From positions 713-64,712 of the forward strand of contig ONED01000004.1 in NCBI GenBank assembly GCA_900316755.1: DNA of 64,000 nt, given 5' to 3'. Position numbers and translations under genes: made by a program. The notes below the pieces were generated by a model, which was not told the DNA's origin, searched no databases, and saw only the letters and a program-made list of their open reading frames with translations. Positions within the stretch are counted from its first letter, which is position 1; each line of letters starts with the position of its first letter. This DNA is from an uncultured Eubacteriales bacterium. Lineage in GTDB: Bacteria; Bacillota; Clostridia; Lachnospirales; Lachnospiraceae. Below, in pieces: positions 4,457-64,000 of the stretch.

Positions 4457-5365
4457 CTACGCTTTCAAATGCTTCCGAATGGTAAAAAAGCTTCCAATAA
4501 AACCGATTCCGACTCCCAAAAGAAGTCCCACCGGAAGCAGTGTTTTGTATACTTCTGACGCCGGCAGAAAATCCAGTATCGAATTCAAAACAGAAAACTT
4601 ACTCATAATACTGCTGACTGCCTTTTCATATGCAAAATAAAGAATCACCAGTGGAATGGCGGCTCCAGCCAGTCCAATCAGAACACCTTCAATAATGAAC
4701 GGTGCTCTTACAAAGGAATCCTTTGCCCCGATGTACTTCATAATCGCAATCTCTTCCCGCCGGATGGTAATCCCCATAGATACCGTATTGCTAATCAGGA
4801 AGATTGCAACAACTAAAAGAATCAGGATAATTGCTCCGGAAATATATGCAAGAAGCACGTTAAAATTCTCCAGCGTCTTTGCAACTACATCCGATTTTTT
4901 CACCCTGCGAACCCCGTCCAGTCCTTCGATAAAGCTGACCACATCCTCCTGTTGTTCTACCGACTCCAGATAGACCTCATAATTGTCTGAATCTACCAGT
5001 GGATTATCTTCCTTAAAGCCTTCTGCCAACTCTTCATTCCCTTCCAGATAGTCGGAAAGGAAACTGTCCAGTGCTTCCTCCGCCGACACATATTTTACTT
5101 CTGCCACGCCGTCGCACTTGGAAATCTCTTTTCCGATTTCCTTTACCCTCTCATCCGTGGCATCCGCGTCGAAGTAAACGACAACCGCCACACCTTCTTC
5201 TGCCTTCTGTACAATATAATTAAAGTTCGTAATAATGGAATAGAATATGCCGAACAAGAAAATACAGGCCGCCATGGTCGCAATAGACGCAATGGAAAAC
5301 ATCCTGTTCCTTGAAATATTCTTCACTCCCTGTTTTACCGAGTATCTTACTGTGCCGAATCTCAT
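4457..5365 (-). CDS. ftsX: Cell division ABC transporter permease
   Basis: Four-TM FtsX topology, RREEIAIMKYIGA motif, adjacent to ftsE. Confidence 0.93.
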   Translation of the reverse strand: MRFGTVRYSVKQGVKNISRNRMFSIASIATMAACIFLFGIFYSIITNFNYIVQKAEEGVAVVVYFDADATDERVKEIGKEISKCDGVAEVKYVSAEEALDSFLSDYLEGNEELAEGFKEDNPLVDSDNYEVYLESVEQQEDVVSFIEGLDGVRRVKKSDVVAKTLENFNVLLAYISGAIILILLVVAIFLISNTVSMGITIRREEIAIMKYIGAKDSFVRAPFIIEGVLIGLAGAAIPLVILYFAYEKAVSSIMSKFSVLNSILDFLPASEVYKTLLPVGLLLGVGIGFIGSFFTIRKHLKA

Positions 5366-6040
5366 TTATACACCCACCCTTTTCTCGTCGCTTACAATAA
5401 TCCCCTTATTCATTGTAATGACACGTTTTTTCATTGCTTTCACAATTTCATGGTTATGAGTTACAACGACAACGGTTGTTCCTCTTTCGTTTGCTTCCTC
5501 CAGTAACTTCATGATTTCCCATGAGTTTGCAGGGTCCAGATTACCGGTCGGCTCATCTGCCAGCAAAATTGAAGGCTCATTTACAACAGCTCTTGCAATC
5601 GCAACACGCTGCTGCTCTCCTCCGGATAACTCCTTTGGAAAAGATTTATATTTTTGTGCCAGACCTACCAGCGAGAGTGCCGCAGGTACTTTCTTCTTAA
5701 TCAAACGGCTCGGTGCCTCCGTTACCCGTAGCGCAAAAGCAATATTCTCATATACATTTCGGTCTTTTAGTAAACGGAAATCCTGAAACACCACCCCTAT
5801 TTTTCTGCGGTAAAACGGAATCTCCTTGTGTGTCATGCTCCCAAGATCCTGTCCCATAATCCGAATCTCCCCGGAGGTGGGTTCCAGTTCTTTCATCAAC
5901 AGGCGAATCAAAGTGGATTTCCCCGATCCGCTGTCACCTACAACGAACACAAACTCCCCCTGCTCAATCTTCAGGCTGATTCCATTCAGCGCAGCAATCC
6001 CCTTAGAGTACTCTTTCGTTACTTCTCTTAATTCTATCAT
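5366..6040 (-). CDS. ftsE: Cell division ATP-binding protein
   Basis: Walker A GDSGSGKST, VFQDFRLL, LSGGEQQRVAIARA, DEPTGNLD. Confidence 0.95.
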   Translation of the reverse strand: MIELREVTKEYSKGIAALNGISLKIEQGEFVFVVGDSGSGKSTLIRLLMKELEPTSGEIRIMGQDLGSMTHKEIPFYRRKIGVVFQDFRLLKDRNVYENIAFALRVTEAPSRLIKKKVPAALSLVGLAQKYKSFPKELSGGEQQRVAIARAVVNEPSILLADEPTGNLDPANSWEIMKLLEEANERGTTVVVVTHNHEIVKAMKKRVITMNKGIIVSDEKRVGV

Positions 6041-6056
6041 ATGCTCCTCCTAATTA

Positions 6057-7145
6057 TCAATACTCCAATGACTCCATGTATTTCATGTATTTCACAACCA
6101 TAAGGGCAATCTTAAATGTGATTGCATCTTCAAACACACGCAAATCCAGCCCCGTAATCCTCTGAATCTTATCCAGACGGTAAACCAGCGTATTTCTGTG
6201 AATATACAGCTGTCTTGATGTCTCCGAAACATTCAGGCTGTTCTCAAAAAACTTATTAATCGTCGTCAGCGTCTCATCATCAAAGTTATCCGGCGATTTC
6301 CCCTCAAATATCTCCCGGATAAACATCTTACAGAGCGGAATCGGCAGTTGGTAAATCAATCTTCCGATGCCCAATGTATTATACGCGACAATATCCTTCT
6401 CTGTAAAGAAGATTTTCCCCACGTCCAGAGCAAGCTTTGCTTCTTTGTAGGACTTAGAGACCTCTTTCATATCGCTGATAATGGTGCCGTAAGCAATATG
6501 GAAATCTTTTAAGCCCTCCCCCTTTAGCATCGCTAAAAGCTCATTTGCAAATCTCCCGACTTCTTTGTATCCGTCGTCTTCCTCCAGTTCTTTCACAACG
6601 ATAATATTTTTTTCATCCACAGCCGTCACAAAATCCTTGCTGTTTCCTCCCAGCAGGCTGCGCATACGCTCCAGCGCATTTGCATCTCTTTCGGATGAAA
6701 TCTCAATAATAAAAATAACACGTTTCACATCTGTGTCAATGTGTAACTTCTTAGCACGATTGTAAATATCCACCAGCAGCATATTATCGAGAAGCAGATT
6801 CTTGATAAAATTGTCCTTGTCAAACCGTTCTTTATACGCAACCAAAAGGCTCTGAATCTGGAAAGCGGCAAGCTTTCCGACGGTATAGACATCCTCACTT
6901 TCTCCATATGCCAAAAGCACATACTCTAAATGGCATTCATCATATATTTTGAAAAACTGGCAGCCCTGCACCACCTGACTGTCGGCAGGTGACTCTACGA
7001 ATGCACGCACAGCGGCAGAATGCTCTTCCGAGCCGGTAAGTGTACCTGCCACTTCCTTTCCTTCCACATCCATGACACATAAATCGATTCTGGTAATGGC
7101 CTTAAGGCCTTCCATTGTACTTTGCAGTATTTGATTTGAAATCAT
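6057..7145 (-). CDS. CdaR/PucR family transcriptional regulator
   Basis: C-terminal PucR-type HTH (LNVSETSRQLYIHRNTLVYRLDKI) with a GGDEF-like middle region. Confidence 0.88.
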   Translation of the reverse strand: MISNQILQSTMEGLKAITRIDLCVMDVEGKEVAGTLTGSEEHSAAVRAFVESPADSQVVQGCQFFKIYDECHLEYVLLAYGESEDVYTVGKLAAFQIQSLLVAYKERFDKDNFIKNLLLDNMLLVDIYNRAKKLHIDTDVKRVIFIIEISSERDANALERMRSLLGGNSKDFVTAVDEKNIIVVKELEEDDGYKEVGRFANELLAMLKGEGLKDFHIAYGTIISDMKEVSKSYKEAKLALDVGKIFFTEKDIVAYNTLGIGRLIYQLPIPLCKMFIREIFEGKSPDNFDDETLTTINKFFENSLNVSETSRQLYIHRNTLVYRLDKIQRITGLDLRVFEDAITFKIALMVVKYMKYMESLEY

Positions 7146-24434: not shown

Positions 24435-24474
24435 AAAAACAGAGAGCACATTGTAATATGCTCTCTGCTTTTTT
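24435..24474. terminator. Bidirectional terminator between ssrA and the HEPN gene
   Basis: cagagagca (24440-24448) / tgctctctg (24459-24467), flanked by A and T runs. Confidence 0.8.
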
Positions 24475-24862
24475 ATGCATTCAGGTATTCTTTTACTGAT
24501 CGAATTACTGATTCGGCTGTTTTAATCTGTTCTTCTGTTTCTTCTTTAGATGCAACATAAAAATCATCATAATCGCTATCTTCTCTAATCTGTTTCAGAT
24601 TTCCAATTTTTCGCCCTAGGGTTTTAGGAAATTTTTCTGTAGCAACATACTCTTTATTGAAATAGGAAACCACATCTTTATGCCTCTTAAAGTCCACAGA
24701 GCCAAGAGCGAGGACTGCTTTAATTGCATAGAATACAGAATAGTACGAACGATTAATCGAATCTTTGTAAAATTCACCTTCTAAACACGTTTTTGCAACA
24801 GTCAGACTTTCTTCTGCTTGTTGCAATCTGTAATTACTCAATTCTTTCTGTCTATCATTCAC
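24473..24862 (-). CDS. HEPN-domain protein, putative toxin
   Basis: AEESL..A....G.Y..SINRSYYSVFYAIKAVL and REDSDY (Rx4Y); overlaps the MNT gene by 8 bp. Confidence 0.85.
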   Translation of the reverse strand: MNDRQKELSNYRLQQAEESLTVAKTCLEGEFYKDSINRSYYSVFYAIKAVLALGSVDFKRHKDVVSYFNKEYVATEKFPKTLGRKIGNLKQIREDSDYDDFYVASKEETEEQIKTAESVIRSVKEYLNA

Positions 24863-25187
24863 TCAGAACAACTCCTTCCTTTTGGACATTGTCATAAAAT
24901 GGCAGTACACCAAGCCAATAATTGAAATGTTCCTCATTCTTGATAACTACGCTTATATCCACTCCGTACTCCATTTGGAAATCAAAAGCCAAATCATAAA
25001 TGGATGTTTTCGTCTTTCTAATCTCTTCATCTGTAAGAGTAGTCAATATCATAATATCAATATCTGAGTTTTCTCTATAATCTCCACGCGCATAAGAACC
25101 ATATAAAATGACTTTCTTTAAATTCTTTCCAAGAATCCTTTTTACTTGCCCAGTAAACTCTAAAAGAATATCGTGTGTACTTTTCAT
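24855..25187 (-). CDS. Minimal nucleotidyltransferase (MNT), putative antitoxin
   Basis: Exact GSx10DxD motif (GSYARGDYRENSDID). Start MKSTH after AAAGGAG (ORF track starts at 25235). Confidence 0.88.
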   Translation of the reverse strand: MKSTHDILLEFTGQVKRILGKNLKKVILYGSYARGDYRENSDIDIMILTTLTDEEIRKTKTSIYDLAFDFQMEYGVDISVVIKNEEHFNYWLGVLPFYDNVQKEGVVLSE

Positions 25188-25286
25188 ATATCCAACTCCT
25201 TTCCCAAATTTATTACTATAGGTATTATACATCATTTATACCTCTCAATCACGCATTCGTGCGTCTTATCATTTTTGTTCATATAG

Positions 25287-25403: not shown

Positions 25404-25514
25404 TCAAACCAATGGGAGTTTTTCTGTTTCATCTTCCTCACCGGACGTACGAATTATCTCTCTGTCATTGATCCAAAGCACCACCATATCTGGAATCTCA
25501 TATTTCTGTTTCAT
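25404..25514 (-). CDS. Unannotated 36-aa peptide, MKQKYEIPDMVVLWINDREIIRTSGEEDETEKLPLV
   Basis: Manual translation; strong RBS (TAAGGAGGGG) fused to the stop codon of the 812-aa gene; paralogous to the peptide at 61374-61505. Confidence 0.8.
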   Translation of the reverse strand: MKQKYEIPDMVVLWINDREIIRTSGEEDETEKLPLV

Positions 25515-25527
25515 GTTACTCCCCTCC

Positions 25528-27966
25528 TTATTTCGTTAGGCAGCTTTCAGCAGCCTGATTATACAAATAAAGTGATTTTACAAGGTTCTGTAATGTTGCT
25601 TTCGTAGAACCAGTCAGTGCGTAATATCCATATGTAAGTGCACTTACCGTACAGGTATCTGTTTCTCCCGTTACAGTGTTTTTTACGGTAATCGTATGCA
25701 TATCGCCCAGACTGCCTGCTACAATGTTTTCAATTGCGATATAATAGCTTCCGCCCTCTGTCTGACGAATAACCGGAGTACAAGTAGATGATGTAACTTC
25801 CAAAGCATCTGCTGTAACACCTGATGCACATGTAAAATACAACCTTAATGTTGTTTCTGATTTTAGTACCAGACTAATATTCTGCATGGCAATCACATTT
25901 TGCGACTGCAATGGCTGATATTTGTATTCTAAAAAGGCATCTGTCACTACATCTTCGAGTAAGCCCTGATCCGCCGATTCTAAACCTGCATTTGTCAGAT
26001 TATCCGCATTATAGTTAAAATATTGCTGTGCATATGCGCCATAATTTAACATGGTTTTCACAAGTTTCTGAATGTTTGGATCCGTTGTCTGGGTAAGAAC
26101 ACTCTCTGCATACTGTTTTATACTGTAATTATATTCCTGACTCTTCACACCATCGTAATATACAACAATCTTCACTGAATCTGCCATTTCTTTGGCAGGA
26201 ACGAGGCAACTGAATGGATAACCATTCTCTGTAGCTGTCCCTGCATCTTCGAACCTAAGATGCTCTATCGTTCCATCCAGGAATTCAAAACGAACATTTG
26301 CCTTGCTCTTCTCCTGCTCCGTAACTGTTCCATCAAAATCCAAGAAGAACTGAAATTTAATCGTCCCTTCCAAAGTCGCACTCGAGCCGGAAATAGATGC
26401 CTTCTTCGTCCAGACTTTCACGTTGGAAACGGTAGTAGTTCCGCTGTTTGCATAAATGTATGGTGCTCCTGCCACTCCATCCGTGTTGCCCGTGGTACAC
26501 TTCTCAACCACCTTCTCGCCATTCATCCACATACTGACCTTCTGTGGCTCCACGCAGAAAGTAATCCGAATGCCGTCTGCAAGACCGGTCGCTCCACTTT
26601 TCTCTGCAAGGTGTACGTTTGACGCAGAATAAATACACCAATAATTTTTCTGTAACAACAGTCTGCCGTGATTTCCACGGTTATAAAGCCAACAGTCTCC
26701 GTCTGATTTTATCGTATAGCTCACATAGAAAGTATCCTCCGCCGGGATGGCATCCGTGTACATATTTCCATACCTCGCTTCACTGTCCACGCTCAGAGTT
26801 TCTGTTCCATATTTTAAGGAATCTGTTGTTTCGCAATACACCGGCTCATCTGATAACGACACCTTTTCTGTCCAAACCTGAATATTAGAGACTTCAGATT
26901 TTTCAAAACTCCAGAGAATCATTGGTCTGGCCGCACCTACATCCAAAACCGCATCATCAAAAATCTTCACATTACCCAGCCAGATTTTCAGCGTGTTCAT
27001 GGCAGAATAAAATGTCAGCGTAACACCTGCACCTCCCCCGCCGTATTTACTGGTCAGATTCGAAAGCGCGTCATTTCGAATTTGTTCTGTTTTGGGAGTA
27101 TCGTTTCCATTAAATATTCGGTAGAAAAATGGTGTCAGTTGGATATAAGAACCATCTGCACGACACTGGATTTCTACGTTTCCTTCATTTTTCAATGTCA
27201 TCGTGCAGTAATATGCCGAATCTGCAGGCATATCTGTCTGAATCGCCGCGTCCCCTTGGCTTGGAACTGTCAGAACTTTGCTTTCTGCATCATAAGTTCC
27301 TCCCAGAGAGCCCTGAACCTCATACAACACCTCTGAGGATGGGTCATATTGGGGGAGAGCAGTCGCAACAGTCCAAAGCTGTATATCTGTAATCGTCACT
27401 TCACTGTATGTCCATGTGACCTTTGGCTGTGATGCCCCCGAATCCGTCACAGCAATGTCAAACACCTGCTTTCCTCCTGCCCAGAATGCCATTCTGTCAG
27501 TAGACGAATAAATAGTAACACGCAGTCCATCCGTAAAATTTCCGGACACTCCCGTACCGTAATTATACCAATTGCCCAAACTGCTACTCCCGCAACCGCC
27601 ACTTTGGATATTAAAATAAATGCCACCTAAGCGTGCCTGCCAGTTAAATCCCCTGTAATCCGAGGTCTTCACTGTCATGCTAAGACAATAGGCCGCTTCT
27701 GCCGGCAAGTCCGACAGAATCTCTGCACTTGAGATTGCCGATACAGTGAGCATTCCATCCGTATAATTTCCTCCGTTTGATCCTGTAACAGGATACCGCG
27801 TATCCTTCCCTTCTTGAAAGACCGGCTCCGTGTTTCCCGGCTCTGCTGCCAGAACCGGTGTATCTGGTTGTAATTTTAAATACGCAATTGACAAACCTGT
27901 AACTAATGTTAATGTTAACAAGAATCCCAAGAGGGATTTTCCGCTATTTTTGATTTTATATAACAT
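25528..27966 (-). CDS. Exported 812-aa protein: three beta-sandwich-like modules plus a conserved C-terminal domain (LVKTMLNYGAYAQQYF)
   Basis: Signal peptide; three repeats ending DIQLWT, NIQVWT, NVKVWT; C-terminal ~290 aa aligns by eye with the 61524 gene; no TM or LPxTG anchor. Confidence 0.85.
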   Translation of the reverse strand: MLYKIKNSGKSLLGFLLTLTLVTGLSIAYLKLQPDTPVLAAEPGNTEPVFQEGKDTRYPVTGSNGGNYTDGMLTVSAISSAEILSDLPAEAAYCLSMTVKTSDYRGFNWQARLGGIYFNIQSGGCGSSSLGNWYNYGTGVSGNFTDGLRVTIYSSTDRMAFWAGGKQVFDIAVTDSGASQPKVTWTYSEVTITDIQLWTVATALPQYDPSSEVLYEVQGSLGGTYDAESKVLTVPSQGDAAIQTDMPADSAYYCTMTLKNEGNVEIQCRADGSYIQLTPFFYRIFNGNDTPKTEQIRNDALSNLTSKYGGGGAGVTLTFYSAMNTLKIWLGNVKIFDDAVLDVGAARPMILWSFEKSEVSNIQVWTEKVSLSDEPVYCETTDSLKYGTETLSVDSEARYGNMYTDAIPAEDTFYVSYTIKSDGDCWLYNRGNHGRLLLQKNYWCIYSASNVHLAEKSGATGLADGIRITFCVEPQKVSMWMNGEKVVEKCTTGNTDGVAGAPYIYANSGTTTVSNVKVWTKKASISGSSATLEGTIKFQFFLDFDGTVTEQEKSKANVRFEFLDGTIEHLRFEDAGTATENGYPFSCLVPAKEMADSVKIVVYYDGVKSQEYNYSIKQYAESVLTQTTDPNIQKLVKTMLNYGAYAQQYFNYNADNLTNAGLESADQGLLEDVVTDAFLEYKYQPLQSQNVIAMQNISLVLKSETTLRLYFTCASGVTADALEVTSSTCTPVIRQTEGGSYYIAIENIVAGSLGDMHTITVKNTVTGETDTCTVSALTYGYYALTGSTKATLQNLVKSLYLYNQAAESCLTK

Positions 27967-60890: not shown

Positions 60891-61310
60891 CTACTCAAAT
60901 GGTACAAACGGAAGCTCAATGGGCTTAGAATTTCCCGGCTGTGGGTCTTCCTGATTCGGTTTCTCCGGTTGTTCTTCGTCAGGCTCTGACGGGAGCGGCA
61001 TAGGTTCTTCACTTTCCGCAACGATTGGTAATTCTCCCTTTTCCTTATCCGTAGTCCCGGCCTGATTTTCTTTTGATGCTGAACTATCTTTATTCGTAAC
61101 TCCTTGGTTTTCTTCCGAAGAATCCTCCGTCTTCTCCGTCCCGTCCTTTTTTGAATCGTCCGGTTGTTCCTGCCCCTGCTCCTGATTTATGGTCGGCTTC
61201 GTGACATCATTCTCCTTTTTAGACCTCTGTTTCCAAAAAAAGAGGCTGCCAACTGCGGCAACCAATAAAATTACCACACCGATTACAATCCATTTTTTCT
61301 TGTTTTTCAT
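60891..61310 (-). CDS. 139-aa single-pass membrane protein with an acidic disordered linker ending IELPFVPFE
   Basis: MKNKKK plus TM helix, low-complexity E/D/Q/P/K tail with ELPIV and ELPFVP motifs; GAGAGGAG RBS. Confidence 0.8.
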   Translation of the reverse strand: MKNKKKWIVIGVVILLVAAVGSLFFWKQRSKKENDVTKPTINQEQGQEQPDDSKKDGTEKTEDSSEENQGVTNKDSSASKENQAGTTDKEKGELPIVAESEEPMPLPSEPDEEQPEKPNQEDPQPGNSKPIELPFVPFE

Positions 61311-61336
61311 ATTTCTCTCCTCTCAAAACGTAGAAA

Positions 61337-61362
61337 GCAGACACCCTGATTAGATGTCTGCT
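61337..61362 (-). terminator. Hairpin between the small peptide and the 139-aa gene (possible attenuator or mRNA-stabilising stem)
   Basis: agcagaca...tgtctgct arms. Confidence 0.45.
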
Positions 61363-61373
61363 CCCAAAATCCC

Positions 61374-61505
61374 CTATGAGGACGGCAATTCCACCGACGT
61401 AGCTGCCGGCACAAACGGCAGTTCATTCTCTCCGCTTGTACGTATGATATCATCACTATCAAAGGATACCATTTCCATCTCTGGAGTACTATATATTTCT
61501 TTCAT
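61374..61505 (-). CDS. Unannotated 43-aa peptide, MKEIYSTPEMEMVSFDSDDIIRTSGENELPFVPAATSVELPSS
   Basis: Manual translation; RBS GAAGGAGG directly after the stop of the upstream gene; paralogue of 25404-25514. Confidence 0.82.
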   Translation of the reverse strand: MKEIYSTPEMEMVSFDSDDIIRTSGENELPFVPAATSVELPSS

Positions 61506-63459
61506 ACTGATTCCTCCTTCTCATTATGCAGAAAAATAAGCATTTGCTTTACTATTATACAGATACAACGCTCTGACGACATTTTTTAATTCTTCTGCCT
61601 TATCCCCGGTATAGCCCTTCAAGACATTGTAACAATAGGTCATCGGGCTATAAGTTACTTCTAAAGAATTTTCTCCGTATTTGACTGTAACCTTATAATC
61701 TGTATCCAAATTCTTTGCATCAATATCCTGAATAGTCACATAATAGTATATTCCACTCTTCACCGGCTTCAAATCTTCACTTCCATTTGAGAACGTATAA
61801 AGCGACACATCAGCCCCAGCTGGTAGTGTGAAATACAACTTCAGGGTAGTCTCTGACTCCAGAATCAGACTGGCACCTGCTAATCCGGCAAACTCATTTG
61901 ATGGTGCAGACTTCGCAAAACGTTCAAGATCTGTTTCTGTTACACCAGAAACATCCGTATCGACCAAACCATCGTTTGCAAGAGCCTCTGTATTGTATCC
62001 AAAATAGGTCTGTGCATATGCACCGTAATTCAACATCGCTTTTACCAGAGGAATCGCTTTTCCGTATGTAGCTTCATCATTCAAAATCGAGTCTGCATAA
62101 TCCTTCACACTATAAGTATATTCCTTGCTGACTGCATCTCCCGCAACAACCTGCGCCTTAATCTCCTTTGTCATTTCCTTTGCAGCAACCTCACAGGTAT
62201 ATTGATATCCTTTATCCGTAGAAACACCTGTCACCTGCTGAGTACTTCCATCCGGAAGTGTAAAGTTCATCACTGCCTCTTCAGGATTAATTGCTGCACC
62301 CAGATTCATATAAAAGTTTACACCAATGTTTCCATCCAGAGTGATATTGTGTCCTGCAGGCTCTGCCACATTCAATGTCCAGATTTGAATATCTGACGCT
62401 GTTACCTCAGAAGCAAAACTCCATGGTATATCCGGATTCGTACTACTGTTTGCTGTACTATATGTTCTTTCTATAGCTTTCTCACCATCTACCCATATCT
62501 TAAATCCAACCGTGTCTGAATATATCGTAATCTTTACTCCGGTTGCCAACTTAGCAAACAATTTCTGGTCACTCACCCATGTATTTTCTGTTGTACCATC
62601 GAAACTATAACCTACTTTCTCAATATGAATTAGTGAACCAACTCGTGTCCCAATATTGACATAATTATCGGTTTTAACCCGCATCGTCATATAATATGCT
62701 GCATTACTCGGAAGTTCCGTTGTCACTCCAGCACCTTTTTGAGCAGGTACTTTGAGTTCTCCATCTGCATATGTACAACCTTCTGCCACACTTGTGATAT
62801 TATATTGCTTATCTTTGGTTTCATCATAAACAGGCTCGTCATTTGCATCTTTTGTCTTCCAAAATGCAATATCCGTTATCGTTGCATCAGCAGTTGCTGC
62901 CCAAGTCACCCATGGTACACCAACCTGTCCAGTCGTTGCCATCGCAGCATCGTCTGCCAGTTTTTCTCCGTTTATCCAAATCGTCGTCTTATCCGGTTCA
63001 CTTCGAAAAGTAACCTTAATACCGTCATCACTTAGACCCCTGTCTCCCTGTGGCCACATATTCTGAACTAATCCGTAAAACCCACATTGTTTCTGGTCTA
63101 ATAACATTCGTCCTGCTGTATCGTCTGCAGTCCCCCTATATCTAAACCAGATTGAACCTGTTGTCACTACTTTAAATGTCCCAAAATATGTTGTGTCTCC
63201 CGGGATTGTAACGCCCCAACTCTGTCCGGCAGTCCCAGCTGAAACTATTTCACTAGTTGACATATATTTTAAGGTATCTGTTTCTGCGTTATAAACCGGC
63301 TCATCTGATACGGGCGGTTCTTCAGCACCATCTTTTGCTGTCCAAACCTTGATGTCGGACATAGTTGTATCTGCTACTGCCCAACTCACCTGTGGTTTCC
63401 CTGCCTTTTCAGCTGCACTAGTTGTTAATGAGATGTTTTCTTCTACCTTTTCACCATTA

Positions 63460-63495
63460 ATCCATAATGTAGTTTTCATCCATAATGTAGTTTTC
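63460..63495. repeat. Exact 18-bp tandem duplication, in frame
   Basis: atccataatgtagttttc x2; protein KTTLWM-KTTLWI. Confidence 0.95.
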
Positions 63496-63746
63496 GTTGA
63501 TTCACTACAAAGGGTGACCTTTACGCCATCTGCACCATTCAAACCAGTATTGATACTCCCCCACAATTGATTATTGTCAGCATCTGCTACACCAAGTAAG
63601 CCGTATCCATTCGTTTTTATGACTAGTCGTCCTTCTGATCCTTTGTAATTAAAATAAAATGTATCAGTTGACTTTGCCGTGAAGCTTACATAATATGTCT
63701 GGTCTGCAGCAATTGAATCATACCATACATTACCAGCGCTTTCGGC

Positions 63747-63778
63747 TGAAATCGTTTCGCTATGAAATCGTTTCGCTA
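63747..63778. repeat. Exact 16-bp tandem duplication, frameshifting
   Basis: tgaaatcgtttcgcta x2. Confidence 0.95.
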
Positions 63779-64000
63779 GCATTTTCGTACTTGAGTATGC
63801 ATGTACTTGCAGCATAGCTTGGCTCTTCTCCTTCTGCTTCCGCCACCCCGGTGTACTGCATGAAGGAACTTCCGACAAGTACTGCCGCGAGTAACAAACC
63901 ACATAGTCTTTTCCATTTTTTTAGTTTCATCTCATTTTCCTCCTCGTTTTTTACTATCTTAAGACTTTATATAAATACTATACAGCTTTCTTTTTTTGTT

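Follow-up and report, generated by a model that had tools for sequence, protein, structure and literature searches.

The analysis indicates that a 43-codon gene at positions 61374-61505 (minus strand) of the window, the 64,000-nucleotide stretch of contig ONED01000004.1 that was analyzed, is real and encodes, with fair confidence, a dispersed precursor of an exported peptide pathway resembling that of the recently described linear polyphosphorylated peptides (LPP; Popov et al., Nat Commun 2026, PMC13381572). Its variable end carries the same short tag, ELPFVP, as a neighboring membrane-tethered stalk protein, and this tag is predicted to dock onto the C-terminal domain of the large surface protein encoded just upstream. 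Whether this predicted contact reflects a docking function in the cell is inferred, and somewhat less likely than not on present evidence.

A small gene from a very large peptide family

The open reading frame encodes MKEIYSTPEMEMVSFDSDDIIRTSGENELPFVPAATSVELPSS and ends in TAG. A GGAGG ribosome-binding site lies at 61513-61517, 7 nt before the ATG, and the gene starts 18 nt after the TAA (plus an in-frame TGA) of a 792-aa frame at 61524-63902 (minus strand). A paralog, peptide 1 (MKQKYEIPDMVVLWINDREIIRTSGEEDETEKLPLV, 36 aa, 25404-25514, minus strand), shares Y-x-x-P-x-M, IIRTSGE and LP(F/L)V with it and follows an 812-aa surface-protein gene at 25528-27966 (minus strand). Both large proteins contain MLNYGAYAQ near their C-terminus. 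Close homologs with 80-93% identity are called as genes on related metagenome contigs with the same gene order, namely large protein, peptide, 140-aa protein, AraC regulator, 1110-aa protein and SBP. The earlier note, which had reported this peptide gene, its paralog and their position behind genes with the MLNYGAYAQ domain, was therefore correct in what it observed.

The two genes are, however, not an isolated pair. The 2.14-Mb genome (90 contigs, 44% GC) contains about 11 paralogs, and 37 of 61 related genomes have matches, with up to 18 per genome. A profile search of 1.84 billion representatives returned 8088 clusters at E<=1e-3, nearly all 31-75 aa long with the match at the N-terminus. 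The consensus is MKEKYETPEMEIVEFETEDVITTS followed by a variable tail, with conservation of Y 97%, P 95%, E 90%, F 88%, D 97%, I 94%, T 87% and S 100% (149 sequences for the invariant Ser). After this Ser, conservation collapses into a core rich in G, D, E, P and N with a median length of 16 residues. Pfam and NCBIfam scans of 12 peptides and of the large proteins gave nothing, the family has no model in either, and the only names in the sources are 'hypothetical protein', for example in Ruminococcus flavefaciens. A conserved DNA repeat was ruled out as an alternative to a gene, because conservation across the 8088 clusters is at the amino-acid level and the ribosome-binding site and start codon are retained.

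Within peptide 2, the leader comprises residues 1-24 (61434-61505), in which Y5-S-T-P8-E-M corresponds to the [Y/W]xxPx[L/V/I/F/A] motif bound by RREs, and D19, I21, T23 and S24 form the conserved junction. The variable core comprises residues 25-43 (61377-61433; GENELPFVPAATSVELPSS), with the ELPFVP motif at residues 28-33 (61407-61424).

Could the gene be a decaying relic? An exact tandem 16-bp duplication (TGAAATCGTTTCGCTA x2) at 63747-63778 frameshifts the 792-aa gene near its 5' end and leaves its signal peptide in a separate 56-aa ORF (63760-63930), such that the predicted cognate receptor may not be exported in this assembly. This could represent a pseudogene, a phase switch or an assembly variant, and it may be reversible. 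Peptide 1, furthermore, deviates at conserved leader positions. Peptide 2, in contrast, keeps every conserved leader residue and its ribosome-binding site, and the stalk gene and the maturation cluster described below are intact. Orthologs in related contigs are intact as well, with 3 synonymous and 7 non-synonymous codon differences, a comparison from which dN/dS on the closest ortholog is uninformative. A relic is thus considered very unlikely.

A candidate maturation pathway on a separate contig

Motif scans of the genome identified a candidate maturation cluster on the minus strand of another contig (C69; C numbers denote contigs of this genome, and L numbers loci fetched from elsewhere), just downstream of leuS. 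It encodes a 245-aa P-loop protein (5793-6530; APSGTGKST) with only weak similarity to known kinases (ScmC 1.2e-6, HprK_rel_A 0.03), whose nearest homologs are from Faecalimonas MAGs, so that the genome is probably that of a Faecalimonas-like Lachnospiraceae. An 88-aa discrete PqqD-type RRE (5522-5788; Pfam PqqD 7e-18, lasso PqqD chaperone 5e-10, best PDB match the lasso RRE TbiB1) overlaps by 8 nt the start of a 161-aa archaeal-type, SipW-like signal peptidase I (5044-5529; TIGR02228 7e-8, PDB match SEC11A). A DUF624 membrane protein and an MsbA-like ABC exporter (2624 to about 4330; ABC_membrane 8e-29, ABC_tran 1e-24) complete the set. No PF14907 (NTP_transf_5) nucleotidyltransferase lies in the C69 cluster and no precursor gene lies on C69, but two adjacent PF14907 genes (4e-39 and 8e-38) sit within a polysaccharide-biosynthesis locus (C74, 4353-6866) as candidate equivalents of LppN.

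The link between the peptide family and this machinery is direct. Among 25 loci fetched with the kinase, the kinase-RRE-peptidase-DUF624 (K-B-S-D) order is conserved, and a family peptide lies immediately upstream on the same strand in L035, L037, L044, L045, L046 and L051. With about one copy per 200 kb, such adjacency cannot be chance. L059/L060 carry the full set in one operon, namely a CT-domain protein (see below), a peptide, a lipoprotein stalk ending VIELPFVPFG, an ScmC-like kinase (PF27840 in L059), PqqD, peptidase, ABC exporter and NTP_transf_5. A Piwi-domain, prokaryotic Argonaute-like gene (L059, 229-2454) lies divergently next to this operon. A family peptide lies directly in front of the cluster in at least 7 other genomes.

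The published pathway comprises lppA-K-B-S-D-N, in which a YxxP leader (consensus YxxPxVLxHQxIxFETxxS, motif Px9Fx[T/A]) is bound by a discrete PqqD-type RRE, a SipW-like signal peptidase removes the leader in an RRE-dependent manner, and an HprK-like kinase polyphosphorylates Ser+3, alongside an MsbA-like exporter and an NTP transferase (PMC13381572). The family described here does not fit the Px9Fx[T/A] register but shows P-x6-F-x-[ST] and P-x12-I-x-T-S, whereas the LppA leader, rebuilt from the primers of that study, is MEENTKREQKLYARPMVLSQQPVRFET|AQS. The conserved Ser nevertheless lies 19 residues after the Tyr, compared to 18 in LppA. Among the few supplement sequences retrieved, which left cluster 1 members out of the comparison, the peptidase (26-33% identity) and the RRE (26-35% for both together) match RRE-associated SpI sequences of SSN clusters 4 and 9, from Dehalobacter, Desulfosporosinus, Anaerocolumna and an uncultured Ruminococcus, which the authors did not study. 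Chemistry transferred from LppA may therefore not hold. A profile search of the PDB found neither an LppA leader nor LppB, although the copy searched may lack 9x8z or the chains may be too short or too distant.

The available data is most compatible with a model in which peptide 2, and likewise peptide 1, is co-transcribed with the upstream surface-protein gene, translated from its own ribosome-binding site and bound through its YxxPxM leader by the single discrete PqqD-type RRE of the genome. The RRE would present it to the kinase, which probably phosphorylates the invariant Ser24, and to the SipW/Sec11-type peptidase, which by analogy to LppA (F-3, E-2, T-1 | A, Q, pS) is expected to cut within I21-S24, at a site that cannot be fixed from sequence. 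The ABC exporter would then secrete an acidic product of roughly 20 residues, which the PF14907 enzymes may modify further. The family, the synteny, the machinery and the in silico docking described below are results of the analysis, whereas phosphorylation, the cut site, export and binding in vivo are inferred.

Other peptide classes fit less well. A lasso peptide, suggested by the YxxP leader, the T23-S24-G25 pattern and the lasso-type RRE match, is all but excluded, since core positions 7-9 are F, V and P rather than Asp or Glu, and no cyclase or B2 peptidase lies beside the RRE in any of the 25 loci. A radical-SAM RiPP of the ranthipeptide/SCIFF type is not supported, as Cys makes up 0.3% of core residues and the only SPASM-like radical-SAM enzyme found (C57, 14968-16350; 460 aa, with an RRE-like N-terminal region) resembles, by sequence motif alone, the usual SCIFF maturase of Clostridia, is not next to any peptide and appears unrelated to the peptide family. 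A double-glycine/PCAT export leader was also rejected, because a motif scan found no C39-ABC transporter in the genome and the hydrophobic spacing differs.

The C-terminal domain, the stalk and a predicted docking motif

In this genome, 10 of 11 peptide copies lie directly behind, or between, genes for large secreted proteins, and the same holds in R. flavefaciens and in other contigs. The MLNYGAYAQ region belongs to a domain of about 290 aa, termed CT here, that is shared by the 792-aa protein (61527-62390, residues about 505-792, MLNYGAYAQ ... ALYLYN), the 812-aa protein and two proteins on contig C87. At least 1099 proteins carry it, without a Pfam model, and it lies at the extreme C-terminus in 119 of 120 homologs, joined to N-terminal modules as different as LRR_5, Flg_new, Big_2, transglutaminase, NEAT, DUF6273 and peptidase C1. 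A family peptide follows the CT-domain gene in 12 of 14 independent cases, including three of three homologs chosen only for long contigs and different architectures, in which it lies 12-15 nt downstream. These peptides carry (E)LP(F/I)(V/E)P-type tails, and in a set of 37 distinct peptides not selected on tail or domain, the xPxxP tail type was found only behind CT-domain genes (3 of 5 against 0 of 32; Fisher p=0.0013). The tails of the C87 peptide (EMPEIPMP) and of L064 and L065 are degenerate, however, and peptide 1 has a shortened tail (...EKLPLV) that lacks the second Pro.

The gene downstream of peptide 2 (60891-61310, minus strand) encodes a 139-aa stalk protein with an N-terminal TM anchor, an acidic disordered region and a C-terminus (NSKPIELPFVPFE) whose ELPFVPFE tag (60894-60917) repeats the motif of the peptide core. 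A hairpin with a 14-bp stem and a T-rich tract (61333-61365) separates the two genes and may act as a partial terminator that sets different expression levels or as an RNA-stabilizing element. Stalk proteins of this build, anchored by a TM helix or a lipoprotein signal and ending in IELPFVPF[E/G/A/Y], are adjacent in 9 loci, with examples next to the peptides in C87, L009, L021, L027, L058 and L059, and one directly upstream of the kinase in L042. In R. flavefaciens (L027, 5363-6132; GCA_900143025.1), two family peptides flank a lipoprotein stalk. One of them has a core of only six residues (NELEQQ), whereas the tail of the other (EPIELPLVPLR) shares the 10-residue string PIELPLVPLR with the stalk end (KPIELPLVPLR). 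Peptide 1 has no stalk gene nearby, and in the corresponding position (24473-25235) lie genes for an MntA-like nucleotidyltransferase (126 aa) and a HEPN protein (129 aa) that look like a type VII toxin-antitoxin pair.

Because the peptide ORF is in frame with the 792-aa gene and separated only by TAA and TGA, the natural read-through (CT domain, GG, EGGIS, peptide) could be folded with AlphaFold2, using an 88-row alignment from which misaligning short peptides had been dropped. The model reached pLDDT 88.4 and pTM 0.86, with the CT domain above 90 and predicted to form two Ig-like sandwiches plus helices. The linker and the whole leader remained below 50, whereas residues 321-333 (GENELPFVPAATS) rose to about 90, with beta-bridges at E28 and at V32-P33. 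A second, independent pair (L030; a peptidase C1-lectin protein with a 42% identical CT domain and the tail GELPFVPVR) behaved the same way, with the leader below 50, the motif at about 87 and bridges on the same motif residues. As both models tether the peptide artificially to the domain and lack a negative control, they are supportive but not decisive. Foldseek of the CT domain against the PDB gave only generic Fab and tandem-Ig matches with TM<=0.2.

These data bear on how the peptide relates to its neighbor. The earlier note had proposed two cognate pairs in which the peptide is processed after TS and acts as ligand, chaperone, assembly subunit or signal, in a layout it did not recognize from any described system, and this interpretation is only partly supported. 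Specifically, the RRE-type leader and the conserved link to the CT domain hold, a PqqD RRE, peptidase, kinase and exporter exist in the genome, and 'ligand' is a reasonable reading of the predicted contact. Yet a related system has been described, and the peptides belong to a branch of a huge dispersed family, most members of which trail other secreted proteins or precede the maturation operon. The occurrence of the peptides independently of the domain, which had been named beforehand as a refutation, is therefore literally fulfilled for the family, though not for the ELPxVP-tail subset. Cleavage after TS is unlikely under the LPP model, because the invariant Ser is the probable phospho-acceptor and should stay in the product. 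An unmodified cytoplasmic chaperone or assembly subunit, compatible with the tight gene pairing and the predicted motif-domain contact, is very unlikely, since the partner proteins have Sec signal peptides and fold outside the cell, the leader is shared by thousands of peptides with unrelated neighbors, and family peptides head kinase-RRE-peptidase-exporter operons. A free secreted RiPP, such as a signal, bacteriocin or biofilm factor that merely borrows the promoters or co-regulation of surface-protein genes, is also unlikely but harder to dismiss, given that most members lack a CT-domain neighbor and that the biological role of LPPs is unknown (PMC13381572). Against it stand the correlation of tail type with the neighboring domain, the tag shared with the stalk and the predicted docking in two pairs.

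A possible second layer, put at slightly below even odds, is that ELPFVP serves as a docking tag for the CT domain. In this view, CT-domain proteins, which have no LPXTG, TM or other C-terminal anchor, would be held on the cell by the stalk, and the exported phosphopeptide would be either a competing, releasing ligand or a second, wall- or glycan-borne tag. The latter idea rests on the location of LPP clusters and of the PF14907 genes in polysaccharide loci, whereas no reason is evident why a cell would export a soluble copy of its own anchoring tag. More tentatively still, gut and rumen Clostridia might run an undescribed surface-display system with a tandem-Ig receptor domain on more than 1000 otherwise unrelated exported proteins, a 7-8-residue stalk tag (IELPFVPF) as the anchor, and an LPP-type pathway that makes exported, phosphorylated copies of this tag. 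Possibly joined to wall or capsule glycans through the phospho-Ser and the PF14907 transferases, these copies would provide extra docking sites or release the cargo. Other tail classes, W-ending and others, would then be tags for other receptor domains, which would explain why thousands of these precursor genes sit behind secreted-protein genes. Four family peptides with W- or G-rich tails (C70, 9801-10982; C72, 6302-7498; C78, 36820-38097; C80, 11838-12911) are each followed by a paralogous exported protein of about 360-425 aa that ends in a cohesin-like beta domain with the motif FC(D/N)W...W(D/N)I(Q/K)Y, and may represent a second cognate peptide-protein class.

Relation to known peptide and anchoring systems

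The LPP pathway itself is already known, whereas the literature searched contained nothing on the Clostridial family, the CT domain or the stalk. What this locus adds is a specific proposed receptor-tag-anchor triad with a structural prediction, and thus a concrete, testable proposal for the unknown role of LPP-type peptides, in which the variable core is a ligand for a domain encoded next door. It also defines three unannotated but very common parts of Clostridial genomes, namely the peptide family, the CT domain and a stalk-protein family with a fixed C-terminal tag. If the docking holds, it would constitute a new way for Gram-positive gut bacteria to hold enzymes and adhesins on the cell, the first case of a RiPP pathway producing protein-docking tags, and a short orthogonal tag/receptor pair of practical use.

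Compared to LppA precursors, the peptides share the YxxP leader with a discrete PqqD RRE, a SipW/archaeal-type leader peptidase, an HprK-like kinase, an MsbA-like exporter and, encoded away from the cluster in this genome, candidate PF14907 nucleotidyltransferases, the conserved Ser before a hypervariable C-terminus, and links to polysaccharide loci. They form a Clostridial branch that differs in the leader register, in much shorter cores (median 16 aa against 45), in precursors dispersed at about 10 or more per genome, mostly right behind secreted-protein genes, and in tails matched to the domain of the neighbor. Paeninodin-type phosphorylated lasso peptides likewise combine an RRE of the lasso-type clade with an HprK-like Ser kinase and a nucleotidyltransferase, but here there is no cyclase, B2 protease or ring-forming acidic residue, and the product would be linear. 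Prochlorosins and the Nif11- and NHLP-type dispersed precursors also have many scattered genes that share one leader with hypervariable cores and are served by a single remote maturation locus, yet leader, enzymes and chemistry differ, and the precursors here are positionally tied to surface-protein genes. Cohesin-dockerin and other non-covalent Gram-positive anchoring systems (SLH, CWB, GW modules), to which there is no sequence or fold relation, resemble the proposed arrangement in a C-terminal module shared by many otherwise unrelated exported proteins and a membrane-anchored partner that presents the ligand. In the arrangement proposed here, however, the receptor would sit on the cargo and the ligand would be a 7-8-residue linear C-terminal tag on a disordered stalk, with a RiPP-type peptide carrying the same tag.
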